The notes beneath the pieces are model-generated. The model did not search any database and was not told the origin of the DNA. It saw only the letters and a list, made by a program, of their open reading frames with translations. The translations under genes and the position numbers were made by a program. Source: Candidatus Wolfebacteria bacterium RIFOXYB1_FULL_54_12 (GTDB lineage Bacteria > Patescibacteriota > Minisyncoccia > UBA6257 > UBA9933). Taken from it: a stretch of 64,000 nucleotides of DNA. Numbering within the stretch: position 1 is the stretch's first letter; each line of letters begins with the position of its first letter. Of the stretch, positions 6,550 through 37,741 are shown in pieces. The stretch is from NCBI GenBank assembly GCA_001793895.1, contig MGIT01000001.1:106508-170507 (forward strand), written 5' to 3'.

Positions 6550-6625
6550 AAAAAAATGGGTTAATTATTAAATATTCGCCTACACTTAAGAATAGCATAA
6601 GTAATCGGAATGCTCCACACAAAAC

Positions 6626-6649
6626 AAAAAACTCCTTTCGGAGTTTTTT
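6626..6649 (-). terminator. rho-independent terminator hairpin (bidirectional shape) downstream of tRNA-His
   Basis: The hairpin aaaaaactcc-tttc-ggagtttttt is flanked by T/A runs. Confidence 0.5.
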
Positions 6650-6655
6650 GCATAG

Positions 6656-6732
6656 TGGGGGTGCCCAGAGGGTATCGAACCCTCGACCTTCGGTACCACA
6701 AACCGACGTTCTACCACTGAACTATGGGCACC
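6656..6732 (-). tRNA. tRNA-His (GTG)
   Basis: Cloverleaf read from the reverse complement: acceptor GGTGCCC/GGGCACC, anticodon loop ttGTGgt, T-loop GGTTCGATACC. CCA is encoded. Confidence 0.8.
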
Positions 6733-6834
6733 ATGTACAATGTGGTCATTATAATAACCCGTTTGTTCATAAAAAACAAGCAAGAAAAAGCCCGGCCAAT
6801 AAACAGCCGGGCGTGGGTACCACAGAAACGTCAG

Positions 6835-7599: not shown

Positions 7600-7606
7600 A
7601 GAATCC
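7578..7606 (-). terminator. hairpin plus T-run downstream (minus-strand sense) of the tRNA-Phe 3'-end paralog
   Basis: aaaaaggg ttccctcacagaatcc tttttt. The loop motif CCTCACA is shared with the tRNA-Phe terminator at 7801..7830. Confidence 0.35.
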
Positions 7607-7621
7607 TTTTTTGTTTATTCA

Positions 7622-7775
7622 AATCCCTTTCGGTGCCGCGGGAGGGAGTTGCCTACAAGTCTCGCTTCGCCGCCGCTCAGCGAGCTCGCAGGCCGCCCCT
7701 CGCGATGTGCCCTGCTGGGCCGCATATCGCTGCGGTCTTAAACTCCCCACGCGGGCAAAGCAGTTTGCCCGCTCC
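7622..7775 (-). ncRNA. candidate structured RNA or att-site remnant. It is a 154 nt GC-rich segment closed by a GGTGCCG/CGGCACC stem, and it reuses the 3' 20 nt of tRNA-Phe.
   Basis: The segment has internal palindromes (gcgagctcgc, and gcgggcaaa-ctgc-tttgcccgc). Its GC content is far above the surrounding sequence. It shares a 38 bp exact direct repeat with the tRNA-Phe 3' flank. Confidence 0.2.
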
Positions 7776-7800
7776 ACGGCACCAACCAGATAAAAATAAA

Positions 7801-7830
7801 AAACATACTCCTCACAAGTATGTCTTTTAT
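7801..7830 (-). terminator. rho-independent terminator downstream of tRNA-Phe
   Basis: acatact-cctcaca-agtatgt, followed by a T-run on the minus strand. Confidence 0.5.
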
Positions 7831-7848
7831 TTTATTCAAATCCCTTTC

Positions 7849-7922
7849 GGTGCCGCGGGAGGGAGTTGAACCCCCGACGCTTGCCTCTTCAGGGCAACGC
7901 TCTACCGCTGAGCTACCGCGGC
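7849..7922 (-). tRNA. tRNA-Phe (GAA)
   Basis: Reverse complement reads GCCGCGGTAGCTCAGCGGTAGAGCGTTGCCCTGAAGAGGCAAGCGTCGGGGGTTCAACTCCCTCCCGCGGCACC. The anticodon loop is cTGAAga. Confidence 0.85.
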
Positions 7923-7998
7923 TTATACACCTATTCAAGATGTGCAATCATTATACATGGTTGGAATTTTTTTTCAATCCCAATCCCCTGTTATTGGT

Positions 7999-8033
7999 TA
8001 TAGGTTATTAGTTATTGGTTATCTTAGTCGGAG
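7999..8033. repeat. degenerate heptamer tandem tract (GGTTATN)n
   Basis: gttattggttataggttattagttattggttat. Confidence 0.6.
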
Positions 8034-8037
8034 AGCC

Positions 8038-8108
8038 GGGAATCGAACCCGGACCATATGCTCCCAAAGCATACATACTACCACTATACTACTCTCCGTT
8101 TGACAACT
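8038..8108 (-). tRNA. tRNA-Pro (TGG)
   Basis: Reverse complement reads CGGAGAGTAGTATAGTGGTAGTATGTATGCTTTGGGAGCATATGGTCCGGGTTCGATTCCCGGCTCTCCGA. The anticodon loop is ttTGGga. Confidence 0.8.
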
Positions 8109-8168
8109 GTTGCAGTTTGTCGCTTTCTTAGTATACTGAAATAGTCACAAAAGTAAATGCATTTGCAC

Positions 8169-8240
8169 GCCCCTGTAGTTCAATGGATAGAACAGGAGAC
8201 TTCTAATCTCCCAATATAGGTCCGATTCCTATCGGGGGCA
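8169..8240 (+). tRNA. tRNA-Arg (TCT)
   Basis: GCCCCTGTAGTTCAATGGATAGAACAGGAGACTTCTAATCTCCCAATATAGGTCCGATTCCTATCGGGGGCA. The anticodon loop is ctTCTaa. Confidence 0.8.
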
Positions 8241-8256
8241 CAAACCAAACACACAA

Positions 8257-8292
8257 ACACCCCGATGTAAACTGAACTGCGGGGTGTTTTTT
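8257..8292 (+). terminator. rho-independent terminator after tRNA-Arg
   Basis: acaccccg ... cggggtg, followed by tttttt. Confidence 0.6.
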
Positions 8293-8299
8293 GTATTCA

Positions 8300-10006
8300 T
8301 TAAGGGCAAATTTTGGGGGCAATATCCCGGGCAACGCCGGTAGTGCCAAGCAGCTCACCTACTTCGTTGTAAGTCGGCGTCTTGATCGTCTCTACCAAAA
8401 TAACATTACCTTTCGAGTCCGGCATGCCCTCTTCGATTCGTTTCTGCATGCGACCCTGCATAACGATCTTATCGTCAGCCATATATTTATCGGCGTACTC
8501 TTCGGGCCAGACATCGTGATCAGTCTTGCCAATGATATCCTCACGCCGTTTCCCTGCACGCGAAAGAAATGCTTCGTTGACCTCAAGATACTCGCCTGCC
8601 GCATTTTTCATCCACACCAAATCGGGAATGTTATCCAAACAAACGCGTTGCTGTAGCTGATACAGCTTCATCTTTTCCTCGGCGATAACCTGCTTGCTTA
8701 GATTCCACCCGGTACCGATGATCCCGATGTCGTTGCCCTTCGCGTCGCGCAACGGAGCAGCCGACCAGCGATACGGGATCGTTGTGCCGTCTTTTTTGAC
8801 AAGATGCGACCGAACCTCGGTATATCCTTTCACGTACGCATCATTGACCATGCCGATCACCAACGGTCGGTCGCGATCCGGAAGCAATTCAAATATCAAT
8901 TTATGGGAAAGTTCCTCCGCTGAATATCCGCTGGCGGTCTCTGCCATTCGATTCCACTTGACGATATTGCGCTCGGTATCCAATACATATACGACGTCAG
9001 GAATCGCATCCATAAGATTGCTTAGCTCGTTCAAGGATCTGCTAAGATTTTTTTCACTTTCCTGCAGATTGCGGTATGCCAATAGGCTCGTCAACCCGTC
9101 GGCCAATCGCCGGCTGATTTCCTGGAAAAGTTCCTGTTCGTCGGCCGTCCATACCCGTGGATGGGAGCACTGGTGCATGCCAAATATCCAAGGCTTGTCC
9201 AATTTTGGATGGACGGCGATAAGCATTTGAGATTGAACACCAAAGCGCCCTGTGGTAGATTTGTCTACCGGGTTTTCCGTACCGACGGTGTAGATCACCG
9301 GCTTCTGAGACGCCAAAACTTCACGCATGGCTTGGACCATGTCCGGACTATCCATCGGCACATCAATATTCAAGGCCTTGGCACCTGCATATTCCGGCTT
9401 GGTAACTTCCATGGGTATGCGATACGAGGGCGCTTCAGGATCGCACGGATAAAGAAGCCACGCTCGATCACAATCAAAAATAGAAAGTACCTTGCTGAGA
9501 ACATTGGTCAATATCTGCTCAGGATCAGTAGCCCCCTGCATTGATTGATTGATCTGATCCATGCTCTCAAAAAAGAGGCGCTTGGTCCGATCCTTTTCCT
9601 CTACATTTTTACGATCGGTAATATTGTCGAATGCGGCGGTAAAAAATCCCCGCTCGGCGCTATATACGGAAACGACGAACCACAGCTTGAACGGACTCAG
9701 ATAGATCTCTATTTTTTCCGGATTGCCGGTATCGGAGACCCGGGCATATGTTTCAAATAACTCGGGGTTGGTATTCCGTATATTAGGAACGAGCTCCGTA
9801 GCCCGCCTGCCGACAACCTGTTGTAGGCCGGTTAGCCATTCAAAAGAAGGGTTGACTTCAAGATACACAAAATCGACAGGCTTGCCCGCCTCGTCAAAAA
9901 TTATTTCACAATGGGCAAACCCGGAAAGCATGCTGTTAAACAACATTTGGTAATGTTCTATACCATGCTTCTTCATGTGATTTTTTACCTTCTCCGAGTA
10001 TTCCAT
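8300..10006 (-). CDS. PAS-GAF-PAS-PAS sensor protein with no recognizable output domain
   Basis: 568 aa. PAS-like segments include DAIPDVVYVLDTERNIVKWNRMAETASGYSAEEL and NIPDLVWMKNAAGEYLEVNEAFLSRAG. A GAF-like core lies between them. No HisKA, HATPase or GGDEF/EAL domain is present. Confidence 0.6.
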   Translation of the reverse strand: MEYSEKVKNHMKKHGIEHYQMLFNSMLSGFAHCEIIFDEAGKPVDFVYLEVNPSFEWLTGLQQVVGRRATELVPNIRNTNPELFETYARVSDTGNPEKIEIYLSPFKLWFVVSVYSAERGFFTAAFDNITDRKNVEEKDRTKRLFFESMDQINQSMQGATDPEQILTNVLSKVLSIFDCDRAWLLYPCDPEAPSYRIPMEVTKPEYAGAKALNIDVPMDSPDMVQAMREVLASQKPVIYTVGTENPVDKSTTGRFGVQSQMLIAVHPKLDKPWIFGMHQCSHPRVWTADEQELFQEISRRLADGLTSLLAYRNLQESEKNLSRSLNELSNLMDAIPDVVYVLDTERNIVKWNRMAETASGYSAEELSHKLIFELLPDRDRPLVIGMVNDAYVKGYTEVRSHLVKKDGTTIPYRWSAAPLRDAKGNDIGIIGTGWNLSKQVIAEEKMKLYQLQQRVCLDNIPDLVWMKNAAGEYLEVNEAFLSRAGKRREDIIGKTDHDVWPEEYADKYMADDKIVMQGRMQKRIEEGMPDSKGNVILVETIKTPTYNEVGELLGTTGVARDIAPKICP

Positions 10007-17286: not shown

Positions 17287-17356
17287 TGTCATTCCGGCCT
17301 CCGAGCCGGAATCTTACCGTTTAACCGCGAGATCCTGAATCAAGTTCAGGATGACA
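17287..17356. repeat. TGTCATTCC nested-palindrome element (composite, 18 bp spacer)
   Basis: tgtcattccggcctccgagccggaatc ttaccgtttaaccgcgag atcctgaatcaagttcaggatgaca. Confidence 0.85.
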
Positions 17357-17373
17357 GTCGTAGACGCATCATC

Positions 17374-19170
17374 CTATTTAGTTGCACTGATTTTAACCCC
17401 TAATTCCGCATACGGCGCCCGCACGGTTATCTTTCCAGTCTTTGGGTCGCGAAGCACGGAATAGCCACTCATTGTTGCCGTTCCCCTGCTCGGGTCCCGC
17501 GGCAATGCGCGCAGATACCACGGCGCAAGGCAAGACTCGATGGCATATCCGCTCGTACCCAGAACCTTTGCAGTCGTCGGCAACGGTCCGGCAGAACAAG
17601 TAAATGCGCCGTCGTTATCGGCTTCGTTTTTCTTGATGGCGTTGGTGATCGCTTCGACATCAAAACTCCTGCGGGCGTTGCGCTCCAGCGCGGTCTTCGG
17701 CGCGGGGATGCGCGCATCGCCGCCAAGCATCTGCGTGAACAACGATTGCAAAGCGCTATCGATCGATCGCGCATCTTCCGGAGGGAAAATGTCCACAGGC
17801 TTATCGAAGCTGTTACCGGTAAGCGTTACCAGAACGCTCGCACTGCGCGCGCTGTCTTGCGGATCAATCGCAATGTGCATCTGCACTTTGCGTGGCGCCC
17901 CGCCAAGTTTCCCGATCCACACGTGCAAATCATCAATGGCGACGTTGGATAGCATGTCTCGCGCTTCCGGTGAACCATTTTTTTCAAGCCAACGAATAAA
18001 AGCTTCCTTATCGAACGCAAGCACATAGTGCCGCGATGAAACACCGTCAATGACCTCGTCTGCCAATGTACTTTGCACGGTCAAAAATCGATGTTCTTTC
18101 CATGCGGCAATACTCGTACTGCGCTCCTGCTTTGAAAGCCACGGCACAAGCCCACTCGCAGGATCCGTAGGTGATCCAAACTGTTCATGCGCATCTTTGT
18201 CCGACACCATGAACCACTGTTGCTGCAATGCGCTCAAGTTGAGAAACCCAAGGCTGGGCATGGCCGTTATATTTACATAACTGACCCGGTCGATATTGTT
18301 ATAAATAAATCCAAGCGTCGCTTCGCCCACGGCCCACTTGTCCATGGTCGATACGGCGGTAAAGGCCAACCGAGGATCGCCTTCTTGCGTTCCGTCAAAA
18401 GAACCGACGATATTTGATGTAAGCGTCGCCGGCCCATCAGCGGCAAACATGCTCACGAACGGCCCTGCGGCTCCCGTCGTTGCGACCAAGCCGGTCTTTG
18501 CATTTGCCATTTCCACCACGATCTCGCTCGCGAACGTAAACGATTCCACGCTATGCAATCGCGACATAGCCCGATCGATATCCCGCTCGGGCGATATGAA
18601 ATAGGCGGCATAAGCAAACCAAATACCCAGCGCCAATACCGCAATGCCAACGATCGCAATGGCGGTAAATGTAATGATTTTTTTCTTGTTGCGAATTTCG
18701 GAAACAGGTTTTTCTGCAACAGCGGAAGCGGTTGCTTTAAAAACAGAGGCTAACGGAGGTTGCTGTATTCCATTGGCAACGGCAAACGGAACGGTAGGCT
18801 GCAAAGGTGGCACAGGGCGGACCACGCCATGCGCTTCCGTGCGTGCAGGCGCAGGCTCAGGCGACGGCACCGTCGGCTTTGTAATAGGAGCAACCGGGAC
18901 TGCTTCTTGTACCACAGGAACAATCGGTCCGGGAGCTGGCGCTGGTTTAGGTGCCGGAGTCGGCTCGGCAACGATCTCAGGGGTTGGGATGGGATCAGCA
19001 ACCACTTCCTTACGCGCCATGCCCGTAACTCCGGGCGATACCAGTTCAAATATCTCGCGTATTTCTGCTTCATCGGTTCCCCTCCTACGCAAAAACTCGC
19101 GGACTTCCGCTTCACTCACCCCTCCACCCAATTGGTTTTTCACCACTTCAATAAGCGCCTGTTGTATCAT
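17374..19170 (-). CDS. hypothetical membrane-anchored protein: paralogous N-terminal domain, Pro-rich linker, one TM, and a large extracytoplasmic domain
   Basis: 598 aa with TM IITFTAIAIVGIAVLALGIWFAYAAYFI and a Pro/Ala-rich segment. Confidence 0.5.
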   Translation of the reverse strand: MIQQALIEVVKNQLGGGVSEAEVREFLRRRGTDEAEIREIFELVSPGVTGMARKEVVADPIPTPEIVAEPTPAPKPAPAPGPIVPVVQEAVPVAPITKPTVPSPEPAPARTEAHGVVRPVPPLQPTVPFAVANGIQQPPLASVFKATASAVAEKPVSEIRNKKKIITFTAIAIVGIAVLALGIWFAYAAYFISPERDIDRAMSRLHSVESFTFASEIVVEMANAKTGLVATTGAAGPFVSMFAADGPATLTSNIVGSFDGTQEGDPRLAFTAVSTMDKWAVGEATLGFIYNNIDRVSYVNITAMPSLGFLNLSALQQQWFMVSDKDAHEQFGSPTDPASGLVPWLSKQERSTSIAAWKEHRFLTVQSTLADEVIDGVSSRHYVLAFDKEAFIRWLEKNGSPEARDMLSNVAIDDLHVWIGKLGGAPRKVQMHIAIDPQDSARSASVLVTLTGNSFDKPVDIFPPEDARSIDSALQSLFTQMLGGDARIPAPKTALERNARRSFDVEAITNAIKKNEADNDGAFTCSAGPLPTTAKVLGTSGYAIESCLAPWYLRALPRDPSRGTATMSGYSVLRDPKTGKITVRAPYAELGVKISATK

Positions 19171-19408: not shown

Positions 19409-21829
19409 CTAATAAGTCGAATAGGCGTAGTCAAACACGGCATGAGCTACTGTCTCTAAACTTTTAGCACTACATTTATCGAGCGTATCGCCAGTCGTAT
19501 GATATGGCGGGTATTCAAAATCAATCAACAGGAAACTCGGAATTCCAGCTCGATTGAGCGGGGTGTGATCATCTTGGACACTTTGCCCAACCTTATCTTG
19601 AAAAACGTGGCTGTCCACTTTTTGCGCAATACTCCAAAATGCGTCCGCTTGAGACTGGGCATTTTGCACGGATGATTGCTCCTTGTAAATTCTCAAGTCT
19701 TTATCGCACACCATATCAAGAACAAGTGCGGATACCGGTATATTATTCCCATAAAGTTCGCTCAAATGTTCGGAAAAATAAGTAGAACCGAGAGGTCTCC
19801 AATTGCTATAATCACTGCCTTGATTTATATCTCCCTCTTCTCCATCAAAGAAAACGATGTCCACGCCAACACTCGGTATCACATGAGAATTGCCGAGTAT
19901 CCGCGCTAATTCCACAAGGACGGCAACACCCGAAGCAGAGTCGTTGCCCCCTGGCACTGGTTGATCTTTGTATACGTGATCCTTATCCGCAAGTTTTTTA
20001 CTGTCATAATGTGTCGCTAAAATAATGCGCCGTTCTTGGGTTGGGTATAGACGGCCTATGATATTCGATAATTTATGGATTTTACCGTCTGTCCCTTTGT
20101 AATCCCACGATTGTGTAATTACTTCGTTGGTTTGTTCTTTCATCTCCGCAATTAGAAATTTCTGCACGTTTTCATGCCCGGGTGCGCTCATGTGGCGCGG
20201 CCCATACCTTAGTTGTTGGTTTATCACGGCAAGCATTTCGTTGCCATCAATAAACGGTTTTTCCTTAAAAGTACGCCGGAGAACTTCGGACGTTAAGTAC
20301 TCAACCGGAGAAAAATTGTCGGTGAGAATTGGGTATGGAGACAAATTAAATCTGTCCAAGTTGATAACTTTATTTCGAAGCGAGCTAATGATTGAGTTCT
20401 CATTTTGCAGAATTGAAGCCGCGCTCAAATCAATTTTTTTATTACCATTCCATCCAACCAAAATAATATTTTGGGAATCTGTTTTTCCGGGAGTTTCAAC
20501 CGCAAAAAAATAACTATTTGGAAAAACACTTTGAAAAGTTTTTATCTCCGCAAAAATAAGAGATGGCTCTTGTCTTGATAAATCTCCGATTAAATTAGCG
20601 ATAAACAATCCATCGTCAGATAATTTCTCTTTTGCGATGGTAAAAAATTCCTGCGTTGTAAAGTGAGCAGGAATGGAAAAAAGAGAATGGTACGCATCGC
20701 TAAATATAAAATCATATTTTTTATTCGAATCCCAAAGCAGGCGACGACCATCTTCAGTATAATTGTATAGATTTGAATTGTCTTCTACGGCAAAATATTC
20801 TTTTGCTAATGCCAATAACGATGGTTCAATTTCTGAAACATCGAGTGTCGCGTTTGGCAACTCCGCTAAAAGGGCCTTCGGTATAGAATATGCGCCACCG
20901 CCTATAACTAAAGCATTTCGTACGTCCGGCTTGAAAACTTTGTAGAGAGAATAGTATTTCGTGTATTCATAAACGAGATCGGCCGGGTTATCCGAATCGA
21001 GAAACATCGCACCGGAACCACTCCGATCCTGTTGAAAAAATCTTGTCGGCCTGCTTTCAAACATACCATCGTAGATGGTGATTTTTTCGTAAATACCATC
21101 TTTGCTGTACAATACATCGCCTTTTGTTTGCTGAACCGCAACAATGGTAATAAGGGCTAAAGTGACAACGGCAACCAAAGACTGGGTTAGGCGTTTTTTG
21201 TCAAAACCAAATACCGTAAGTGGGATAAATCCGAGAAGGAAGAGAACAACTCCTGTGGCAATAAAAATATGGTCTATGCCAAAATTAGGTATAAGCACAA
21301 AACCCGCAAGTAGACTGCCAATGATACTCCCCAGAGTAGACCAAAAAAATATTTTACCCGAAACACTTCCCACTCCCTGCTCTGGTGCTTGAAGACTCTG
21401 TAATTTTATAGCATAGGGCGACAAAGTGCCGAGCAATAACGCAGGAACAAGGAACAGCAGCAAAGAAGAGATCAGTGGTCCGCTTGTAAGTGAAAGATTT
21501 TTGCTTAAAATTGGAAGAATTATCAAACCAAAAAAATGAAATACAAGGACAAGAAGACCGCTTACGAGAATTATCCCGAAGAACCACCGTAACGATGGGT
21601 GACGATCTGCAAATTTTCCGCCCACATAATATCCTATGCTAAGAGCTGCGAGTATAACACTTATTATACTTGATACAGTAAAAATTGTGTTTCCATAGTG
21701 AGGCGAAAGGACACGGACGGCAACGACTTCAATAATCAAAACACACGCCCCAGTGATAAATACTGAGATTGGCAGCAAATTTTGCTTTAAAAATTTGTTC
21801 ATGTATTTAATCATGGTAGCAGTTTGCAT
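19409..21829 (-). CDS. fusion protein: polytopic membrane domain plus spermidine/spermine synthase-like methyltransferase fold plus C-terminal M28 zinc peptidase domain
   Basis: 806 aa. The N-terminus has about 8 TM segments. The ALVIGGGAYSIPKALLAELPNATLDVSEIEPSLLALAKEYF segment is spermidine-synthase-like. The C-terminus has GGNDSASGVAVLVELARIL and VFFDGEE (M28 metal ligands). Confidence 0.55.
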   Translation of the reverse strand: MQTATMIKYMNKFLKQNLLPISVFITGACVLIIEVVAVRVLSPHYGNTIFTVSSIISVILAALSIGYYVGGKFADRHPSLRWFFGIILVSGLLVLVFHFFGLIILPILSKNLSLTSGPLISSLLLFLVPALLLGTLSPYAIKLQSLQAPEQGVGSVSGKIFFWSTLGSIIGSLLAGFVLIPNFGIDHIFIATGVVLFLLGFIPLTVFGFDKKRLTQSLVAVVTLALITIVAVQQTKGDVLYSKDGIYEKITIYDGMFESRPTRFFQQDRSGSGAMFLDSDNPADLVYEYTKYYSLYKVFKPDVRNALVIGGGAYSIPKALLAELPNATLDVSEIEPSLLALAKEYFAVEDNSNLYNYTEDGRRLLWDSNKKYDFIFSDAYHSLFSIPAHFTTQEFFTIAKEKLSDDGLFIANLIGDLSRQEPSLIFAEIKTFQSVFPNSYFFAVETPGKTDSQNIILVGWNGNKKIDLSAASILQNENSIISSLRNKVINLDRFNLSPYPILTDNFSPVEYLTSEVLRRTFKEKPFIDGNEMLAVINQQLRYGPRHMSAPGHENVQKFLIAEMKEQTNEVITQSWDYKGTDGKIHKLSNIIGRLYPTQERRIILATHYDSKKLADKDHVYKDQPVPGGNDSASGVAVLVELARILGNSHVIPSVGVDIVFFDGEEGDINQGSDYSNWRPLGSTYFSEHLSELYGNNIPVSALVLDMVCDKDLRIYKEQSSVQNAQSQADAFWSIAQKVDSHVFQDKVGQSVQDDHTPLNRAGIPSFLLIDFEYPPYHTTGDTLDKCSAKSLETVAHAVFDYAYSTY

Positions 21830-21887
21830 ATGATTAGTCTATCCGCCATTGTATTTTTTAAGCGAGGACTATTTTCAAAATATTTCA

Positions 21888-21934
21888 CAAAAACAAAGAC
21901 CACGCATTTTAATGCATGGTTTTTGTTTTTGTGG
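21888..21934 (-). terminator. rho-independent terminator, copy 2 of the duplicated hairpin; it abuts the tRNA-Ala 3' end
   Basis: aaaaacaaagaccacgcatt-ttaa-tgcatggtttttgtttttgtgg. Confidence 0.55.
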
Positions 21935-22002
21935 ACCTAGGCGGAATCGGACCGCCGTCTCAGCAATGCGAATGCCGTGTTCTACCACTAGACTATAGGC
22001 CC
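21932..22002 (-). tRNA. tRNA-Ala (CGC)
   Basis: Reverse complement reads GGGCCTATAGTCTAGTGGTAGAACACGGCATTCGCATTGCTGAGACGGCGGTCCGATTCCGCCTAGGTCCA. G3:U70 is present. The anticodon loop is ttCGCat. Confidence 0.8.
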
Positions 22003-26665: not shown

Positions 26666-27760
26666 TCAACGCATAACCCCACCTCCGATGACAACTCCAT
26701 CGGCATCGTAAAATACGGCAGATTGTCCCACGGCAACAAACCGTTGCGGTTCATCGAATTGCAACCGATAGGCCTCACCATCGGCGACCAATGTCGCCGC
26801 AAACAACGGCTGGCGATAGCGGATGCGCACCATGACCGGAATGGACTTCGGGGGGGCTATGGCGCACATGCCCATGAAATTAAGTTCAACAAGGCCAATA
26901 TCCGCACATGCCTGCTCAAGCAAATGATCATCATGCGAAACCGTGATGACATTGCTTGCGACATCTTTTTTGACCACAAAATACGCCGGTCCGCCCCCGA
27001 CATGCAATCCGTGCCGTTGCCCGATGGTATAAAACCACACACCCTCGTGCTCGCCCACCTTCACTCCGTCGACGGTAACAATGTCGCCCTTCCGTTTCGG
27101 CAGATACTGTTCCAAAAATTCACGCAACGATATCTTCCCCAAAAAACAAATACCTTGGGAATCTTTTTTCTGCGCCGTCGGAAGTCCCGCGGCCGCCGCA
27201 ATCTCCCTGATCTTCGGCTTTTCATAGGCACCGATCGGAAACAAACAATGCCGCAGTTGCTCCTGCGTAAGCGTCCACAAAAAATAACTCTGATCTTTAT
27301 TCCCATCAATCCCTTTCTGTAATGAGTAAGTAGTTTCCTGTTTTTTGTTATCGGTTATAGGTTGTAGGTTATAGGTTGCGCTTCGCGCATAATGCCCCGT
27401 CGCCACATAATCAGCCCCCAACGCAAGCGCCTTTTGCAAAAACACGCCAAACTTGATTTCCTTGTTGCACATCACATCCGGGTTCGGGGTAATGCCGTTG
27501 CGATACCCGTTGACCAAATATTCCACCACGAATTGTTTGTATTCTTCTTCAAGATCGATGACATAAAACGGGATGCCCAAATGTTCGGCAACGCGCCGCG
27601 CATCTTCCGCTTCGCGGTCTTGGCATCCGTCCATGTTATATCCTTTAATGAACGCGCCGATCACATCATAAGTCCCCTGCTCGCGCAACAAAAAAGCGGC
27701 GACACTCGAATCGACGCCGCCCGACATCATGACAAATACTTTTGGCTTTAAACCATTCAT
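26666..27760 (-). CDS. mnmA: tRNA-specific 2-thiouridylase MnmA; an in-frame heptamer-repeat insertion encodes SATYNLQPITDN
   Basis: PP-loop MMSGGVDSSV, catalytic Cys residues, and a C-terminal beta-barrel. The insertion maps to 27347..27380. Confidence 0.9.
   Translation of the reverse strand: MNGLKPKVFVMMSGGVDSSVAAFLLREQGTYDVIGAFIKGYNMDGCQDREAEDARRVAEHLGIPFYVIDLEEEYKQFVVEYLVNGYRNGITPNPDVMCNKEIKFGVFLQKALALGADYVATGHYARSATYNLQPITDNKKQETTYSLQKGIDGNKDQSYFLWTLTQEQLRHCLFPIGAYEKPKIREIAAAAGLPTAQKKDSQGICFLGKISLREFLEQYLPKRKGDIVTVDGVKVGEHEGVWFYTIGQRHGLHVGGGPAYFVVKKDVASNVITVSHDDHLLEQACADIGLVELNFMGMCAIAPPKSIPVMVRIRYRQPLFAATLVADGEAYRLQFDEPQRFVAVGQSAVFYDADGVVIGGGVMR
27347..27380. repeat. degenerate heptamer tract (GGTTATN)n, intragenic and in frame in mnmA
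   Basis: gttatcggttataggttgtaggttataggttgcg. Confidence 0.7.
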
Positions 27761-27817: not shown

Positions 27818-28432
27818 TTATATGATGATGCTTGTCAGGCTTAATGCGGCAATAATGTATCCGGTCGATACAAGCGCGATTGCATACCCGATAAAAAACG
27901 GCAGGCCGAGCGCCGTATATGCTTCGCGCAAAAAAATGTCACGAATGAGGCTGATGACGACCACAGACAAAAACACGGCCGGCACGAACACCACAAAATG
28001 CGGCCACCCGACAACAAGTGCCAGCAACGCCCCAAGTTCCACTTCGCCTTCTTCAAAATAACGCGGATTATGCGCTCGCAACGCGCGCAGTACCGCAAAA
28101 AACAGCAAGGCCGCACCGATGGACACGATCGCGTTGAGCCAAAAATGGGTCCAACTGTAGTGCAACAGAACGGCAACGCTTTGATGTGGCGGCAGAAAAA
28201 ATCGCGTAAGTTCGGTTCGCATCCATGCATAATATTGCAATGCCGTTCGCACCCCCGCGAACAATAATCGAAAGACCGCGACGCCGAATGCAAATCGCAA
28301 GAATATGCGCCGTCTATCCGCCATTGGCCTGTAATACATAACGCATACCGCAATGGCAACCGCAAAAAGAGCGCCGGTGCGCACCCAATCGATCGAAGAA
28401 GAGAATAGAAACTGTAAAAATGATTCGCGCAT
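27818..28432 (-). CDS. polytopic membrane protein, possibly prepilin-peptidase (A24)-like
   Basis: 204 aa with multiple TM segments. The GEVELGALLALVVGW segment resembles the A24 motif GDVKLLAALGAWLGW, with D replaced by E. Confidence 0.35.
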   Translation of the reverse strand: MRESFLQFLFSSSIDWVRTGALFAVAIAVCVMYYRPMADRRRIFLRFAFGVAVFRLLFAGVRTALQYYAWMRTELTRFFLPPHQSVAVLLHYSWTHFWLNAIVSIGAALLFFAVLRALRAHNPRYFEEGEVELGALLALVVGWPHFVVFVPAVFLSVVVISLIRDIFLREAYTALGLPFFIGYAIALVSTGYIIAALSLTSIII

Positions 28433-29026: not shown

Positions 29027-29088
29027 TGTCATTCCCGCGGAGGCGGGAATCTATTTAATACTGGATTCCCGCCTCCGCGGGAATGACA
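29027..29088. repeat. TGTCATTCC nested-palindrome element: canonical perfect composite
   Basis: tgtcattcccgcggaggcgggaatc tatttaatactgg attcccgcctccgcgggaatgaca. The terminal inverted repeats are perfect. Confidence 0.9.
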
Positions 29089-29106: not shown

Positions 29107-30843
29107 TTACAAATCCCCCTTCTCGCTCTTGTGTGGTTGCTTTGGTCGTTCTTCGGGGGTAGCTTCTTTTCTTTTTTGTAATGATTCTTCGATTGCCTTT
29201 TTCAGGTCATCAATATTGACCGCCTTTTTCTCGAACACATGTTTTGGCCTATCCTGCGGCATACTGCGAAGTCTATCGTCCATCGCTGGGCGATGCGGCA
29301 CAGGGCTGGCGCCACGATCTCCGCTAAATGGCCGCACGCTCGTCGGCCTATCGGTCAACGGCCCGTCCTGGGATGCCCGCGCAAACGACGGTCTGTCCTG
29401 CCTGCCCGCCGTAGTGTTAGCGGAGGAGGAATCCGCCGGCTGGCGGACGAAGGGTTTACGCTCGAAAGAAGGCTTCGGCGCTTGCGCACGAGGGGTTAGA
29501 GTCGAGCTCAACGACCGCTCGTCACGGCGCATAACCTTATCTGCCATGGATGTCTTACCCGACCCCATATATTCCTTGGCGATCATTTCATCCACCAACG
29601 CCTTAGGCATGGAATAATTTCTGCGGGAGTTTTCAATAATGACATCCTCGTAATTCGGCTGCGGGATTGGATACGGCGGCAAGGTCTCTGCCGAAAATGG
29701 TCTCGATGCCTGGCCGTCAACCAACAATTTAAGGTAAATATGCCGGTTTGACAAGCCGATCATATCTTGCGGCGTAAACTCGGGTTCGAATTCCTTTTCA
29801 AAAAATACGGCGTCGATGGCGCCAACGCGAAACATAGCCAAGGTGCCAATGTTGCCGACGATTGCCTCTGCAAGCCCTTCTTCTTTTTTAAGCTGATCGA
29901 CATACTGGTGGGCCAGCGTCAAGCCAAGTCCGTATTTGCGCGCCTCGGCGAAGATCTTCGTAAATGAACCGGTAGAAAAGTTTTGAAACTCGTCGATGTA
30001 CAAAAAGAACGGCCTGCGTTCGCTCTCGGGAATATCGATGCGGCTCATGGCGGCAAGCTGGATTTTGGTAATGATCATGGCGCCGAGCAATGCGGAATTG
30101 TCTTCGCCGAGACGGCCCTGCGAAAGATTGCAGATCAATATCTTGCCTTCATCCATTGCCTTGCGCATGTCGATGGTCGACTTCGGCTGGCCGATGATGT
30201 TACGGATGACCGGATTGGAACTGAACTGCCCTACCTTGTTCTGCAACGGTGCAATGGCCTCGGTCATGAACTTGTCGGTATATTTTGCAAATTCGTTTTC
30301 CCAGAACGACTTAATGACCGGGTCCTTTAAATTGGAAACGACCTTCAGGCGGTACTCTTTCTCCGCAAGCATGCGCATAATACTCAGTAAGGTCGTTCCC
30401 GGATATTCCAAAAGCGCCAACAGGGTATTGTTCAAAATATATTCCATGCGCGCAGACCATGCGTCCACCCAGATTTTTTGAAACACACCCATCACCGCCG
30501 ACGCGACAAGGTGCGCATGTTCGTCACCGACGCGTTCAAGCGGATTAAATCCGACCGGATTTTCGATATCGGCCGGATTGACATAAATGACATCCTTGAT
30601 GCGGTCTTCTGGCACATGCTTAAGCAACTCTTCGACGAATTCGCCATGCGGGTCGAGCACGGCAACACCAAATCCGTTCTTGATGTCGTTGATCATCAAG
30701 TTTTTCATCATGGTGGTCTTACCCGTGCCGCTCTTCCCGACGATGTACATATGCCGCAGGCGGTCGTTCATTTTGATGCCAAAATTAACGCTTTGATTGC
30801 GAAAATTCGTCTTTGCAAAAATTGAAATTTCTTTGTTGCTCAT
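29107..30843 (-). CDS. TraG/TraD/VirD4-family (type IV secretion coupling-protein-like) P-loop ATPase with a low-complexity C-terminal tail
   Basis: Walker A (IVGKSGTGKTT), Walker B-like (FLYIDEFQNF), and a C-terminal Pro/Ser/Arg-rich tail of about 150 aa. The alternative start at 30858 (MTNSPM) lies inside the repeat TIR. Confidence 0.6.
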   Translation of the reverse strand: MSNKEISIFAKTNFRNQSVNFGIKMNDRLRHMYIVGKSGTGKTTMMKNLMINDIKNGFGVAVLDPHGEFVEELLKHVPEDRIKDVIYVNPADIENPVGFNPLERVGDEHAHLVASAVMGVFQKIWVDAWSARMEYILNNTLLALLEYPGTTLLSIMRMLAEKEYRLKVVSNLKDPVIKSFWENEFAKYTDKFMTEAIAPLQNKVGQFSSNPVIRNIIGQPKSTIDMRKAMDEGKILICNLSQGRLGEDNSALLGAMIITKIQLAAMSRIDIPESERRPFFLYIDEFQNFSTGSFTKIFAEARKYGLGLTLAHQYVDQLKKEEGLAEAIVGNIGTLAMFRVGAIDAVFFEKEFEPEFTPQDMIGLSNRHIYLKLLVDGQASRPFSAETLPPYPIPQPNYEDVIIENSRRNYSMPKALVDEMIAKEYMGSGKTSMADKVMRRDERSLSSTLTPRAQAPKPSFERKPFVRQPADSSSANTTAGRQDRPSFARASQDGPLTDRPTSVRPFSGDRGASPVPHRPAMDDRLRSMPQDRPKHVFEKKAVNIDDLKKAIEESLQKRKEATPEERPKQPHKSEKGDL

Positions 30844-30852
30844 AGGGCTATT

Positions 30853-30990
30853 TGTCATTCCGAATTTATTTCGGAATCTCGTGGTAAAATGCCAAGATCC
30901 TGTATCCGTCAGCCGACGAACGGAAGGATCTGTTTTGCATTGTCATACCGGCGGGTGAGGGCCTGTCCTCGACCTGATCGGGGACCTGTC
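30853..30990. repeat. TGTCATTCC-family elements, degenerate cluster
   Basis: tgtcattccgaatttatttcggaatc ... atcctgtatccgtcagccgacgaacggaaggatc ... tgtcataccggcgggtgagggcc... Confidence 0.6.
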
Positions 30991-31030
30991 AATTTCGTGC
31001 GATACGCACACCATAATAATGCATTCTAAT

Positions 31031-31123
31031 TCCGTTATCCGTTATCGGTCATCCGTTTTCGTTTTCGGTTATAGGTTATTAGTTGTAGGTTTTAGGTTAT
31101 TGGTTATCAGTCATTGGTTATTC
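31031..31123. repeat. degenerate heptamer tract (GGTTATN)n, about 13 units
   Basis: ccgttatccgttatcggtcatccgttttcgttttcggttataggttattagttgtaggttttaggttattggttatcagtcattggttat. Confidence 0.7.
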
Positions 31124-32461
31124 TATCGGCAAATTCTCCGGAGGCTCGCCTTTCTTTGCCTCGATACGGCGCATACTCGGCGCGGTAACCAACGATGACG
31201 GAACATGGTAAAGCGTAGCCAACTCTTCTATGGAAAAGACGGGAGCCTTCTTTATCATGATCCGCTGGCGGTATGCAAAGAACATTGCCCTCTTTTTCAA
31301 AAATTCCTGATGCTTTTTCCACGCCGGAAACAGCCATGCCTTGAAACCTTTCGGCGGGTTTACCGACGTATCCCTGTTTGGCTTGAACGAATTGATATGC
31401 TGGGAACCGAATTGCTTGAATGAGCCGATGATCCCCCCTATATAGGACTTATGAAACGTTTCCTGCCGATCGATAAACACTGCACGCACGCTCACTTCAT
31501 AGCACAGTTTGGATATTTTTCCTTCAATGCCTTCAAGTACTTCCTTTTCAGAAAAGCTCAAAGACGCAATCGTCTTGGGTGGAGCGTCGGATTTTTTCGG
31601 CGGCTCGGGCCATTCCGGAGTGCTTATGAATACAAGAAAAAAATTCTTGATCCACATGACAAGATGATCAAATATGCTCAATTTAGGAGCGACCTTCACC
31701 TCACGGCCTAACATTTTATCGACGATCGCCTGTCCCTTCTTTTTGTAGTCGCTCGTTTTTTCGCCGGTCGGCTTGGATATATATTGCACGAAGATCATTT
31801 CATTCTCGCGGAGCTTCGACATGGTTTCCAAAATGACCGTAAGCGGATCAAGTCGTTGCTCTTCCTCTTTCTCTTCAAAATAGGCGTATGTCTTAATCGG
31901 ATATGCGCTGTCTTTGTCGAGAACCATATCGACGCCCCATACATCATAAACATCGTTGGGCAACATCATCGGCAAGAAGCTGAGATAGTCTTCGACAAGG
32001 GCTATTTCCGCGGCGGGATATTGCGCAAACAATGCGGACTCCACCAAATTGCGGTGCTCGGCAGGTACGCGCACATAAAAATATACACCGCCGCTTCGCC
32101 CGACCATTTCAAACGAAAGGGCGTTTTGAACCTTCCCTTTGATATTTTCATCCCACCATTTGATCTCGCCGGCATAGGTGCCATGTACCGTGGCAAACAC
32201 CTGTTCCATGGATTTCGGACTGCGCAAATTTTCCTTGGGGATGCGCAATTCAAGCACGACCCACTTTTGCGCCTTCTTTGCCGCTTTTTTGTTCGAGTCG
32301 ATGTACAGGTCCCAAAGATAGAACGCCAAAACAACCGGAACGACGGCCCACCATACGTACGAAAAGACCTCGCCAATGCTTTGCGCAATGCCAAGGATGA
32401 TATTCTGCACGACCGGTGTGATCGAAAAATAGTCCAGTAGAAAGTCTGAAATGTTTGCCAT
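31118..32461 (-). CDS. hypothetical membrane-anchored protein encoded directly upstream of the TraG-like ATPase
   Basis: 447 aa with an N-terminal TM (VVQNIILGIAQSIGEVFSYVWWAVVPVVLAFYLW). The soluble domain has no recognizable motif. Confidence 0.45.
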   Translation of the reverse strand: MANISDFLLDYFSITPVVQNIILGIAQSIGEVFSYVWWAVVPVVLAFYLWDLYIDSNKKAAKKAQKWVVLELRIPKENLRSPKSMEQVFATVHGTYAGEIKWWDENIKGKVQNALSFEMVGRSGGVYFYVRVPAEHRNLVESALFAQYPAAEIALVEDYLSFLPMMLPNDVYDVWGVDMVLDKDSAYPIKTYAYFEEKEEEQRLDPLTVILETMSKLRENEMIFVQYISKPTGEKTSDYKKKGQAIVDKMLGREVKVAPKLSIFDHLVMWIKNFFLVFISTPEWPEPPKKSDAPPKTIASLSFSEKEVLEGIEGKISKLCYEVSVRAVFIDRQETFHKSYIGGIIGSFKQFGSQHINSFKPNRDTSVNPPKGFKAWLFPAWKKHQEFLKKRAMFFAYRQRIMIKKAPVFSIEELATLYHVPSSLVTAPSMRRIEAKKGEPPENLPIE

Positions 32462-32524
32462 GTATCTCTTTTAGTATATCGCAAAATGGTCCAACAAAAA
32501 AGAGACACTCGTCTCTTTTTTGCA

Positions 32525-32575
32525 TTCCGTTATCCGTTATCCGTTTTCGGTTATTGGTTATTGGTTATCCGTTAT
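32525..32575. repeat. degenerate heptamer tract (GGTTATN)n
   Basis: tccgttatccgttatccgttttcggttattggttattggttatccgttatt. Confidence 0.7.
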
Positions 32576-33619
32576 TTACGCAACATGATATGTTCCGTTG
32601 TCCAATCGTTTGAAATATTTTTTGTTCTGCAAGTTAAGCAGAATGGTGTTTTCCTTCAAGAATCGCTGAGAGGAAACCAACTGCACGACCTCATGCTGGG
32701 CAAGCGGGCCATTGTCAACAAGCACCTGCTTGATGACGTCCTTTGCCGTACCCGGGAAAAATCCATGCTCGGTCAAACCATACATACCGCGACCTACAAG
32801 GACAAATCGTCCATCCTTGATCAATTCATTATGGATCGTCTGTGCATACACCGGCTTTTTATCGAACCCGACCGAATTGATCGTAGTGGCGATATCGCGG
32901 AAGTGCATCGGCTTGCCATGCTTGCGCAAGATAAGATATGCCTTTGCGCGCGCGGTCTTCGGCGTGATCTCTTCCCAATGGGAAAGACCAAAGTCGGAAT
33001 ACGGATTCACGGAAAACTGTTTCGAGATGCCGAGGTAGTTCATGCCGACGGCGCGGTCGACGTTCGAAGCGGTCGCAACCTGCTTGAAGTGCGGATCGAA
33101 TTGACCCTTGAAGACTATTTCTTCTTTCTTGCCGCCAAAGAACTTGACCGCCTTTTCAATGAAAGTCTCTGCCTTTTTGACGACAGCCTTGTCCGAAGCC
33201 CAAAACCCATAGGAATGATCGCTTTCAGCATGGTACATCGGCTCGCCGGCAATGCGGAAAAGGAAGCGGAACTGATACTTGTTCACGGTCGCATCTTTCA
33301 ACACCGTGCGCATGTCTTCGACAAAATCATCTTCCTTGCGAACGCCGCCCAAGGCAACGAGTTGCTCCTTGGCGATTTGCACCAGGCGATCGCCGCCTGC
33401 ATCGCTAAAACGTTCCCGCGCCAAACGAAGCCCTTCTGCCTCTATCTGGCGCACGCGCTCACGGGTAATGCCGTTGCGTTCGCCGAGTTCCTGCAGGGTC
33501 TTTTCCTGTCCATCGCGAAGTCCAAAACGTTCCTCGACTATTTCTCGCTGTCGAGCGGACAATGCGTGCGTTACCTGTTCGATGATATTGCCTGTGTTCT
33601 TCATAAGAGTTGAATCCAA
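32576..33619 (-). CDS. hypothetical protein with an N-terminal sigma-70 region-4-like HTH
   Basis: LSARQREIVEERFGL...TLQELGERNGITRERVRQIEAEGLRLAR, followed by a domain of about 270 aa with no known motif. Confidence 0.45.
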   Translation of the reverse strand: MDSTLMKNTGNIIEQVTHALSARQREIVEERFGLRDGQEKTLQELGERNGITRERVRQIEAEGLRLARERFSDAGGDRLVQIAKEQLVALGGVRKEDDFVEDMRTVLKDATVNKYQFRFLFRIAGEPMYHAESDHSYGFWASDKAVVKKAETFIEKAVKFFGGKKEEIVFKGQFDPHFKQVATASNVDRAVGMNYLGISKQFSVNPYSDFGLSHWEEITPKTARAKAYLILRKHGKPMHFRDIATTINSVGFDKKPVYAQTIHNELIKDGRFVLVGRGMYGLTEHGFFPGTAKDVIKQVLVDNGPLAQHEVVQLVSSQRFLKENTILLNLQNKKYFKRLDNGTYHVA

Positions 33620-35899: not shown

Positions 35900-36940
35900 T
35901 TACGCCGCCGTAGCGCGGCGCCCCGCGACCACAGCCGCACTAAGAACGCGAATGAATTTGTCGGAAAATACCAACAGTTCGCCCGCAAGGTTCTTGTCGC
36001 TTGCGTCGCGACGGAACGATGAGAGGGAAATCCACGTCCCCTTGTGTTCGTTCATCCACGCCAACGTGCCGGCGCCCTTGCCGATCTTGATGATCGTCAT
36101 CTCGCCACCCTTGCCGATCTTTTTCTGTTCGACAGCGACGAGCGCCGCTCCGGCGCGGAAGACCTTTCCCTTGACCTCCCGATGGGGGAGGTTGAGGACG
36201 TAGGTTCCGACAATGCCTTTCCGCATATTGCCAAGATCGGCCTCTCCACTTTGCAGGATGTGGTCGATCTCGGCCTGCTCGGCCTTGCCGTCGTTTTTCT
36301 TGACAGCGCCGATGAACTTGCGCAACTCCGCTTCGAGCGCGCGTTGCGGGGCACCGGTGTGGACCGACAGATATGCCTTCTTGGCATAGAACAAGGTCCC
36401 CGAGGGGTACTTGTTGTCGGCAACACGGAAAGCCTGCTTCTCGGCATCGGTCGGTTCGCGGAACCGTCCGATCTCCACGGCACGCGCCAGAAAAGCGAGC
36501 GCGTTTTCTGCGCTGGCCACGCCAGAGCGGATCTCTTCAATGAAGAGCGCGAACCGCAAAGACTTCTGCAGCTCTTCATCGCCCGCGCCGAGGATCTTTT
36601 CCTCCTCGGCCTTGAGCTTCTTAAGCTCGGCGACATCACTGGAAGTCAGCATGCCACCACGCTCCTTGACCAGATTGATCTGGAGCTGGCGGGCGCGGAT
36701 CATAATGATCTTCTGCGCCGCCTTTTGGGCATACGCGCTACGCCCGCGCGCTTCCTTGATCTGCTCCTCAATGTCGTCATCACTGACGACCGCCACCTGA
36801 ATGGCGTCGAGGTCGGGCAGAACGGGTTTTACTTTTTCCTTGCTCCTCTTTGCGAGGGCAAGTTCAAACTGCTGGGCAAGCGGGGCGGTAAGTTTCTTGG
36901 TGGGGCCTTGGGGATCGGTTGATGCGGTTGATGCGTTCAT
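35900..36940 (-). CDS. hypothetical protein
   Basis: 346 aa, Lys/Glu/Ala-rich and helical. The antisense ORF 36044..36922 is judged spurious. Confidence 0.4.
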   Translation of the reverse strand: MNASTASTDPQGPTKKLTAPLAQQFELALAKRSKEKVKPVLPDLDAIQVAVVSDDDIEEQIKEARGRSAYAQKAAQKIIMIRARQLQINLVKERGGMLTSSDVAELKKLKAEEEKILGAGDEELQKSLRFALFIEEIRSGVASAENALAFLARAVEIGRFREPTDAEKQAFRVADNKYPSGTLFYAKKAYLSVHTGAPQRALEAELRKFIGAVKKNDGKAEQAEIDHILQSGEADLGNMRKGIVGTYVLNLPHREVKGKVFRAGAALVAVEQKKIGKGGEMTIIKIGKGAGTLAWMNEHKGTWISLSSFRRDASDKNLAGELLVFSDKFIRVLSAAVVAGRRATAA

Positions 36941-37115: not shown

Positions 37116-37658
37116 TTAGAATGGCCCAAAATTGAAGGTCGCCCGTTCCGGCTCGTCGCTCCCCCACTGCGGAACCAACAAATAGCCCTGCGCGCGGGCA
37201 AGCTCATATAGATCTTTTGTTATGCGCACATCGTGCAAACAATAATCGGCAAGCTCCTCCAGCCTGCCCTCGCGATACATCACCGGAGCCTCAAGGCTAT
37301 GGTGCGTTTTTTGCGTTCCCAAATTTATTTTTGCCAAAAGATCCAAGCTGATCCGTCTTCCTAATTGCATTTCAATGTCATCGAGCAGATCGATGCGCGG
37401 CACGCCGAACAGGTTGAACTTGCAGTGCTTATTCAATACGGGAATGTCGAATCGGGTAATACTGAACCCGATGATGCATTCGGCATCGCGTAACAGTTCA
37501 CTGCATTCGATCATGTGGTGCTCGTCGAACGAAATATATTTGTCTTGCGCGTAGGAAAAAAGACCCACCACGGAAACCTGCAGGTCGTTGAAATTATCCC
37601 GCCCCACCTCGGCGAGCGTATTTTTTGTCTCGATGTCGAAAACGATAAAGTCGCGCAT
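37116..37658 (-). CDS. DEDDh 3'-5' exonuclease (DnaQ/RNase T-like)
   Basis: Exo I (VFDIETKN), Exo II (IGFSITRFDIPVL), and Exo III (YCLHDVRITKDLY). The listed start at 37736 translates a heptamer repeat. Confidence 0.65.
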   Translation of the reverse strand: MRDFIVFDIETKNTLAEVGRDNFNDLQVSVVGLFSYAQDKYISFDEHHMIECSELLRDAECIIGFSITRFDIPVLNKHCKFNLFGVPRIDLLDDIEMQLGRRISLDLLAKINLGTQKTHHSLEAPVMYREGRLEELADYCLHDVRITKDLYELARAQGYLLVPQWGSDEPERATFNFGPF

Positions 37659-37665
37659 ACATAAA

Positions 37666-37700
37666 AATAACCTATGACCCATAACCAACAACCCATAACA
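37666..37700. repeat. degenerate heptamer tract (reverse orientation)
   Basis: aataacctatgacccataaccaacaacccataac. Confidence 0.6.
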
Positions 37701-37741
37701 AAAGAAATCGGGATGCAAGGGTGAAACAGAAAGCAAACATA

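Follow-up and report, generated by a model that had tools for sequence, protein, structure and literature searches.

Two families of ATPases of type IV secretion systems (T4SSs) are among the closest described relatives of the proteins considered here. The type IV coupling proteins (T4CPs), such as VirD4, TrwB, TraD, TraG and DotL, combine a RecA-like domain, Walker motifs and an all-alpha insert with an N-terminal transmembrane (TM) domain of two helices, and the other family is VirB4 (TrwK of R388), including its VirB3-VirB4 fusions. The Patescibacteria, or Candidate Phyla Radiation (CPR), account for a large part of bacterial diversity and rely on their host cells for nucleotides. In this study, we analyzed a window of 64 kb, meaning the whole stretch of DNA under examination, from the chromosome of the CPR bacterium Candidatus Wolfebacteria RIFOXYB1_FULL_54_12. 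Three genes on its minus strand encode a helix-turn-helix (HTH) protein, a membrane protein of the family DUF8128 and a P-loop ATPase of the VirD4/TrwB type. On balance, the last two appear to make up a membrane-tethered ATPase motor of the T4SS class, built from two polypeptides, chromosomally fixed and vertically inherited throughout the Patescibacteria, and this motor probably acts on DNA.

VirD4-like genes were reported by Quinonero-Coronel et al. to be near-universal in this phylum, with 5,713 homologues in 2,918 of 3,035 genomes, or about two copies per genome; 148 of them lie near virB4, and VirB4 itself was found in 2,417 genomes (PMC12102498). The same authors described these genes as unlinked to T4SSs and possibly "exapted", named no partner or architecture for them, and noted that T4CP genes are often far from virB4 and that relaxases are almost absent from the phylum (109 in 103 genomes) (PMC12102498). 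An essential T4SS cluster without recognisable coupling protein or relaxase was described by Wang et al. Outside the phylum, the coupling ATPase TraJ of pIP501 has no TM domain, and a separate membrane anchor, TraI, has been proposed for it (PMC12857230). TraI is a small protein with two predicted TM domains and no large cytoplasmic domain, and both are plasmid-borne and encoded in a complete T4SS operon. In Bacillus phages, Pathria et al. named 0305phi8-36 orf201 and SPO1 gp27.4 the "coupling ATPase" of a phage "DNA translocation operon", and deletion of the operon containing orf201 gave no laboratory phenotype in 0305phi8-36 (PMC3357382). That orphan VirD4-like genes are widespread in Patescibacteria has already been published. 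The searched literature does not mention DUF8128, and we found in it neither the partnership of this protein with the ATPase nor its predicted VirB4-like fold nor a connection to the fused proteins of phages and megaplasmids.

A VirD4/TrwB-type ATPase without a transmembrane domain

The ATPase possesses the RecA-like domain, the Walker motifs and the all-alpha insert by which the coupling proteins are recognised (Table 1), and its AlphaFold model has a RecA-like fold with a predicted local distance difference test score (pLDDT) of ~80 in the core. In the Pfam search, TrwB_AAD_bind (PF10412) reached 54.4 bits against a cut-off of 20.5, and DUF87 (45.1 bits), T4SS-DNA_transf (31.3 bits) and TraG-D_C (25.2 bits) were also above their cut-offs; AAA_10 remained below (20.9 against 27.5 bits). 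A phmmer search of PDB with the single sequence retrieved TrwB, and a profile of 26 sequences retrieved TrwB and DotL only. Profile comparison by hhalign aligned the ATPase with R388 TrwB over 259 columns (probability 96.4%, E 1.4e-9), the TrwB alignments passing through the region of the helical insert at low identity; the comparison with R388 TrwK/VirB4 covered 19 P-loop columns only. Conversely, phmmer with TrwB detected 81 ATPase ORFs (open reading frames) in the 80 loci of our sample, and phmmer with TrwK found no CPR ATPase. By sequence, we place the ATPase with the VirD4/TrwB-type T4CPs and not with VirB4.

The sequence-only reading of this window had proposed an ATPase of the TraD/TraG/VirD4 type, naming TrwB_AAD_bind and TraG-D_C as models by which it could be checked and an FtsK or HerA assignment as the outcome that would speak against it. 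Both models match, and FtsK_SpoIIIE (14.3 bits against 24) and the HerA equivalogue NF040819 (16.2 bits against 970) stay below threshold, the HerA-like signal being that of generic DUF87 only. No NurA-like neighbour was found, as a HerA-type context would have it. The assignment does not extend to a named T4CP subfamily: the equivalogue and subfamily thresholds of NCBIfam (CD1115, TraD, TraG) were not reached, with NF045973 the best at 55.9 against 250 bits and the other models scoring far under theirs. The length of 578 aa proposed in that reading agrees with a start at the second ATG (30843), where a 92%-identical homologue (P0122) begins, and 583 aa would result from the first ATG. The long tail that it described as disordered and rich in P, S and R was recovered as well, with R 12%, S 11% and P 11% from residue 431 to the C-terminus.

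No window of 19 residues exceeds 1.5 on the Kyte-Doolittle scale in the ATPase, and Walker A begins already at residue 41; the protein is therefore without the TM domain that defines canonical coupling proteins. It further differs from these in that its gene is unlinked to relaxase or mating-pair-formation genes, is chromosomal and near-universal in the phylum with about two paralogues per genome, and is partnered with a protein predicted to resemble the N-terminal domain of VirB4.

After the hypervariable disordered linker, a C-terminal helix with the motif EKKxVNIDDLRxAIxESL is kept in 26 of 26 close relatives, and it may be a partner-docking motif. A short hidden Markov model (HMM) of this helix matched 13 of 60 more distant DUF8128-linked ATPases and 2 of 25 others, and the helix was rejected as a subfamily marker on account of the 13 of 60. 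A Sulfitobacter plasmid match with 39% identity is a stand-alone ATPase of 395 aa beside transposases and is uninformative on the partner.

DUF8128, a predicted counterpart of the VirB4 N-terminal domain

The gene upstream of the ATPase encodes the protein of 447 aa that had been described from its sequence as N-terminally anchored in the membrane. This description holds, as one hydrophobic stretch is present near the N-terminus. An acidic N-terminus precedes this helix and a K-rich segment follows it, so that the 390-residue DUF8128 domain is predicted by the positive-inside rule to be cytoplasmic. Near-invariant residues are concentrated in a WW..P motif in the TM helix and in the C-terminal tail (residues 408-447; Table 1). 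A precomputed annotation as PF26449 is carried by a 100%-identical database protein (P0001) and by all 120 homologues among the matches listed, and a full-library search with a DUF8128 profile gave 3,559 cluster representatives. Searches of NCBIfam, PADLOC, PDB sequences and a copy of Pfam without PF26449 gave no match for the protein.

The AlphaFold model of DUF8128 has a pLDDT of 81 and a predicted template modelling score (pTM) of 0.75. A Foldseek search with this model returned TrwK chains as all of the top five PDB matches, with E from 3.7e-6 to 1e-3. DUF8128 has no P-loop, and no P-loop ATPase other than TrwK occurs in either structural match list; we therefore infer that the part matched is the N-terminal, non-ATPase domain of TrwK, the aligned residues not being printed. 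As modelled, the cytoplasmic domain of DUF8128 is predicted to have a fold like that of the VirB4 N-terminal domain. No relationship at the sequence level was found: hhalign of DUF8128 against TrwK gave a probability of 0.2%, the PDB profile search had no match at E up to 10, no similarity to Pfam CagE_TrbE_VirB was detectable and NCBIfam gave no match. The similarity to EccE of mycobacterial type VII secretion is much weaker and comes with no sequence relationship, and EccE belongs to another machine with other partners.

Two genes as one proposed unit in Patescibacteria and their fused relatives

For the comparison of loci, the ATPase alignment was scanned against one genome per species and 80 loci were kept, from Lipton-, Uhr-, Doudna-, Morani-, Nealson-, Kerfeld-, Niyogi-, Wildermuth-, Falkow-, Magasanik-, Yanofsky-, Buchanan- and Wolfebacteria, among others. 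A flank of 1.5 kb or more is available in 73 loci, and in 55 of these DUF8128 is the gene immediately upstream of the ATPase, in the same orientation. The gap between the two genes has a median of ~20 nt and is at most 60 nt in 45 of 60 loci. In our window and in each of the 60 DUF8128-linked loci the two are encoded by separate ORFs, and no fusion was found in CPR, the best 150 of the 3,559 DUF8128 representatives being all at most 550 aa long. In our window the spacer is atypically long (259 nt) and filled with repeats.

Outside CPR the two parts are found in one polypeptide. Among the 824 positions of the phage family PHROG 5156, those from 43 to 313 match DUF8128 (E 8e-10) and those from 392 to 807 match the ATPase (E 9e-70). 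In gp156 of Bacillus phage G (825 aa), the DUF8128 HMM matches residues 46-297 (hmmsearch E 2.8e-19) and the ATPase HMM residues 380-814 (E 4.7e-56); hhalign to DUF8128 reached 97.8% over residues 31-319. The same arrangement, more weakly matched, is present in SPO1 gp27.4, and a single ORF of the Priestia megaterium megaplasmid pFDU301A encodes a TM helix together with DUF8128 and the beginning of the ATPase. By the CPR profiles, phage G gp156, SPO1 gp27.4, 0305phi8-36 orf201 (PHROG 5156) and the pFDU301A ORF belong to one two-domain family with the CPR pair, at ~22-28% identity to the CPR proteins. Fusion was seen only in these phage and megaplasmid relatives, which are borne on mobile elements, whereas the CPR pair is split and chromosomal. 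Their order of anchor, N-terminal domain and ATPase is that of VirB4. Because of the adjacency in 55 of 73 loci and the fusions outside CPR, DUF8128 and the ATPase are read as one functional unit, as far as gene order and sequence profiles can indicate it.

The fused genes have T4SS-like genes or a nickase gene as neighbours. In phage G, the gene directly upstream of gp156 encodes gp155, a VirB4-like protein that has matches to P-loop_TraG and AAA_10. The fused genes of Priestia and Pontibacillus adjoin genes for T4SS_pilin, PrgI (VirB3-like) and a VirB4-like protein, and in SPO1, gp27.4 stands between an actin-like partition protein, which precedes it, and a Replic_Relax nickase. The gene in pFDU301A (locus stretch 5950-9609) and in the Pontibacillus plasmid (6968-10951) is split over three ORFs with several hundred bases between one and the next; introns, homing elements or decay could account for these breaks. 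This broken gene adjoins, divergently, T4SS pilin, PrgI, VirB4-like, CheW and sigma-factor genes, in a setting that resembles phage G gp153-156.

VirD4-like paralogues without DUF8128 have settings of their own. In five loci the conserved order is nrdR-nrdD-nrdG-(small ORF)-ATPase-RNase_T-type exonuclease-GT2, which hints at a link of the ATPase family to nucleotide or DNA metabolism in CPR. Six other loci have the paralogue after dnaK, flanked by repeated zinc-ribbon proteins of ~580 aa without Pfam match; this setting also holds a second, divergent ATPase, whose N-terminus KYAPPPPELP... resembles the GEPPxxLPI of the DUF8128 tail.

HTH protein and genomic setting

Further upstream lies the gene for the HTH protein, 347 aa from a TTG start (homologues have 342 aa). 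The sigma-70 region 4 noticed from the sequence was recovered (Sigma70_r4, PF04545, 48.8 bits), and a HARE-HTH domain was recognised in addition (35.1 bits against 25.9). A profile of 29 homologues matches region 4 of RpoD and RpoS, that is, of group-1 and group-2 sigma factors, with E 3e-15. Sigma region 2 is absent from the protein by Pfam, and all sigma models of NCBIfam score far under their thresholds. Nor is it the delta subunit of RNA polymerase, as TIGR04567 reached 31.6 against 42 bits, the HARE-HTH domain is C-terminal and there is no acidic tail. The domains point to a transcription factor, probably binding RNA polymerase or DNA, rather than to a part of the motor. A role as relaxase or accessory factor was rejected, since hhalign against SPO1 gp27.3 (Replic_Relax) gave a probability of 0.1% and region 4 and HARE-HTH alone are recognisable.

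The HTH gene precedes DUF8128 in 48 of 55 loci, and the triad is kept across the Patescibacteria; the synteny whose examination had been suggested is thus conserved. The order secD-secF-HTH-DUF8128-ATPase is repeated across many candidate phyla, with secF upstream in 33 of 46 loci, six of them without the HTH gene. In our window the three genes are flanked by efp and mnmA downstream and by secF and secD upstream, and their GC level equals that of the flanks. Because each has thousands of homologues, the three genes are far beyond chance.

A Pfam scan covered 51 long ORFs (at least 180 aa) of the window, which are housekeeping genes or have no Pfam match. Among the former are tsaD, ppdK, dnaB, recR, tyrS, murB, a P-type ATPase, mnmA, efp, secDF, mreB, murA, scpA, scpB, nusG, gyrB and leuS. 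No VirB4, VirB6 or other T4SS component, relaxase or integrase was found among these 51 ORFs, and the relaxase that was to be sought nearby is therefore absent from them. A phmmer search of the 80 loci with TrwK, phage G gp155, PrgI and T4SS pilin as queries gave no match at a distance of up to 8 kb from the pair. Rfam models matched tRNAs only in the window, so that the long spacers are not explained by structured RNA, and no tRNA gene flanks the cluster.

Among the other ORFs of the window, one of 806 aa (19409-21829) combines MFS-like, spermidine-synthase-like and M28 peptidase domains and coincides with the sole marked GC dip (0.398, 20001-22000). No Pfam match was obtained for the ORFs at 35900-36940 (346 aa, directly upstream of secD), 17374-19170 (598 aa) and 27818-28432 (a membrane protein of 204 aa).

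Repeats and hairpins

The three ORFs, the palindrome and the heptamer tracts were all confirmed at the positions in Table 1. The palindrome lies after the stop codon of the ATPase gene and before the start codon of efp. Its arms (29027-29051 and 29064-29088) are 25 nt long, 12 nt apart and 100% complementary, and each of them is also listed as a terminator-like stem-loop. The small hairpin at the start of the ATPase ORF resembles a family of GTCATTCC...GGAATC hairpins, with GTCATTCC-N12-GGAATC found at 602-627, 2430-2455 and 17288-17313. This family of short GC-rich hairpins also includes the palindrome and is read in spurious ORFs as VIPAEAGI...RLRGND. We take these hairpins to resemble REP-like intergenic elements of many environmental bacteria.

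The heptamer pattern has 30 matches in the window against 4.5 expected, and it is absent from 83 related loci. Further tracts of (GGTTATN)n are found at 7989-8022, 27346-27379 and 37667-37700. The second of these lies in mnmA, where it encodes YNLQPITDN in a variable loop, and the third is also coding, near the 5' end of an RNase_H-like ORF (37116-37736). By its sequence, the perfect hairpin in the HTH-DUF8128 spacer looks like an intrinsic terminator for both directions, and it is not listed by a simple terminator scan.

The sequence-only reading had the cluster bracketed by the palindrome and two heptamer tracts. These repeats exist, but the tracts lie in the two internal spacers, and nothing is bracketed and no mobile unit is marked by them. 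They are not borders of an element, because they recur across the window and the heptamer tracts are inside the cluster. From their distribution, the palindrome and the tracts are read as genome-wide, lineage-specific intergenic filler, outside the machine.

Table 1. Features of the locus, by position in the 64-kb window
Feature	Position (nt)	Strand	Residues or size	Remarks
Perfect composite palindrome	29027-29088	.		Two inverted copies of hairpin unit TGTCATTCCCGCGGAGGCGGGAATC
VirD4/TrwB-type P-loop ATPase, no TM domain	29107-30858	-	583 or 578 aa	
ATPase, C-terminal helix	29164-29214		549-565	Kept in close relatives
ATPase, disordered R/S/P-rich linker	29224-29484		459-545	AlphaFold pLDDT <50
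ATPase, Walker B	29989-29994	-	D289-E290	Invariant in 26 homologues
ATPase, all-helical insert			112-237	Between Walker A and Walker B regions; AlphaFold model
ATPase, Walker A	30715-30738	-	41-48	GKSGTGKT
Small hairpin	30855-30880	.		GTCATTCCGAA-TTTA-TTCGGAATC; overlaps first ATG of ATPase ORF
Heptamer tracts	31031-31122	.		TCCGTTA then GGTTATN; part of the DUF8128-ATPase spacer
DUF8128 (PF26449) membrane protein	31118-32461	-	447 aa	
DUF8128, conserved C-terminal tail	31121-31240			LNIEELATxYHxP...EAKKGEPPxxLPI
DUF8128, sole TM helix	32300-32380		~28-54	Strongly hydrophobic stretch
Perfect 12-bp hairpin	32495-32522	.		CAAAAAAGAGAC/GTCTCTTTTTTG; A and T run flanks; inverted repeat between HTH gene and DUF8128
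Heptamer tract	32526-32575	.	~7 copies	TCCGTTA/GGTTATN; Tandem Repeats Finder; HTH-DUF8128 spacer
HTH protein	32576-33619	-		Sigma-70 region 4 N-terminal, HARE-HTH/winged helix C-terminal

Discussion

The proposed motor would work as follows. DUF8128 would hold the ATPase ring on the cytoplasmic side of the membrane, by analogy with the N-terminal domain of VirB4, and the ring would hydrolyse ATP to drive its substrate to or from an envelope conduit encoded elsewhere, for which the T4SS of the Patescibacteria and their competence machinery are candidates. Where the gene was split, the conserved tail of DUF8128 and an N-terminal beta-hairpin of the ATPase (residues 11-29) probably form the interface, and the disordered linker of the ATPase, together with its C-terminal helix, probably serves to recruit a partner. 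DNA is the most likely substrate because of the T4CP affinity of the ATPase sequence, the nickase and T4SS neighbours of the fused relatives and the paralogues in settings of nucleic-acid metabolism; DNA translocation, put forward from the sequence alone, thus stays the most plausible function. What that earlier view missed is DUF8128 as a modelled counterpart of the VirB4 N-terminal domain and as a unit with the ATPase. The pair is like TraI-TraJ of pIP501 in combining a coupling ATPase without TM domain with a candidate separate anchor, and differs in the large cytoplasmic domain of this anchor and in its chromosomal place. Compared with VirB4, the pair is split into two genes and has no adjacent VirB3, VirB6 or VirB8, and a separate genuine VirB4 is usually present in these genomes.

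Several points weigh against this interpretation. The interaction of the two proteins, the ATPase activity and the substrate are inferred only, and the link between DUF8128 and VirB4 comes from predicted structure alone, sequence profiles seeing nothing. In our window hairpins lie within the 259 nt that separate the two genes, so co-transcription is not assured. Eighteen loci hold paralogous ATPases without DUF8128, and the ATPase can therefore exist without an adjacent partner. Neither a channel-forming partner nor a relaxase was found near the pair, in the scanned ORFs of the window or by phmmer in the 80 loci. Finally, the T4CP homologue of S. epibionticum is dispensable and its T4SS is essential (PMC12102498), from which it follows that the pair is not required for the essential T4SS function.

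A narrower explanation, which overlaps with the proposed motor, is that the ATPase is the classical T4CP belonging to the T4SS of these bacteria, with its gene at a distance from the virB4 cluster; DUF8128 would be nothing more than its detachable membrane anchor, and the pair would bring substrates to this T4SS and do nothing else. The T4CP-like sequence of the ATPase and the usual distance of T4CP genes from virB4 are consistent with it, and the genes that adjoin the fused genes of phage G, Priestia and Pontibacillus (T4SS_pilin, PrgI and VirB4-like) are the component set of the T4SS in Patescibacteria (PMC12102498). However, T4CP-like genes are found in more genomes than VirB4 and at about two copies in each, the homologue in S. 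epibionticum is non-essential in a bacterium whose T4SS genes are essential, Wang et al. recognised no coupling protein or relaxase in the T4SS cluster, and relaxases are nearly missing from the phylum. We regard this explanation as possible and rather unlikely.

More doubtful is a membrane-associated motor that works like VirB4 on proteins (pilins or secreted proteins, for example), extracting or inserting them, with the adjacency to secD and secF reflecting this role. The predicted fold of DUF8128 suggests such a motor, as does secF in the upstream position also where the HTH gene is missing. Against this, sequence profiles put the ATPase with T4CPs, nickases are found beside the fused phage homologues, genuine VirB4 is usually encoded elsewhere in these genomes, and the secDF adjacency may be an inherited order without functional link.

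Still less probable is a cytoplasmic or septal DNA pump for segregation or nucleic-acid salvage, a housekeeping protein of FtsK-like or HerA-like kind unrelated to secretion. The locus is core, chromosomal and vertically inherited, paralogues occur in the nrd operons with an exonuclease, and scpA, scpB, gyrB and mreB are located in the window too; but the FtsK and HerA models fall short by the scores given above, the NurA-like neighbour is missing, and the nrd setting is that of paralogues without DUF8128.

That the locus is a remnant conjugative or integrative element, as the sequence-only reading had also considered, or a defence system bounded by repeats is effectively refuted: the T4SS Pfam families on the ATPase, the palindrome and repeats near the genes and weak PADLOC matches to mad8 (E 2.4e-15), DndH and HerA, which touch the generic ATPase fold only and do not include DUF8128, are set against the absence of relaxase, integrase, VirB4 and VirB6 from the scanned ORFs, a GC level equal to the surroundings, the lack of a flanking tRNA gene, repeats that are genome-wide and inside the cluster, and the same housekeeping neighbours across many candidate phyla.

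For annotation, it follows that the locus should not carry the label of a conjugative element. The locus itself is ordinary for a CPR genome, and its interest would rise if the clade proves to be an intermediate between VirB4 and VirD4 or a motor for nucleic-acid import. The model of a dedicated partner is concrete and testable, and it would offer two target genes in the Saccharibacteria, which are genetically tractable, should the pair be confirmed there. It also makes the pair a candidate evolutionary bridge between the two families of T4SS ATPases. Going further, DUF8128 and the ATPase might, together with their fused relatives, represent an ancient third lineage of the T4SS class that links VirB4 and the coupling proteins and was domesticated in Patescibacteria as a core, relaxase-independent motor for nucleic-acid translocation, a speculative idea to which we give little weight at present. 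If it were true, one possible role of this motor would be to carry DNA from the host, by way of the T4SS or the competence apparatus, for the salvage of nucleotides or the exchange of genes.

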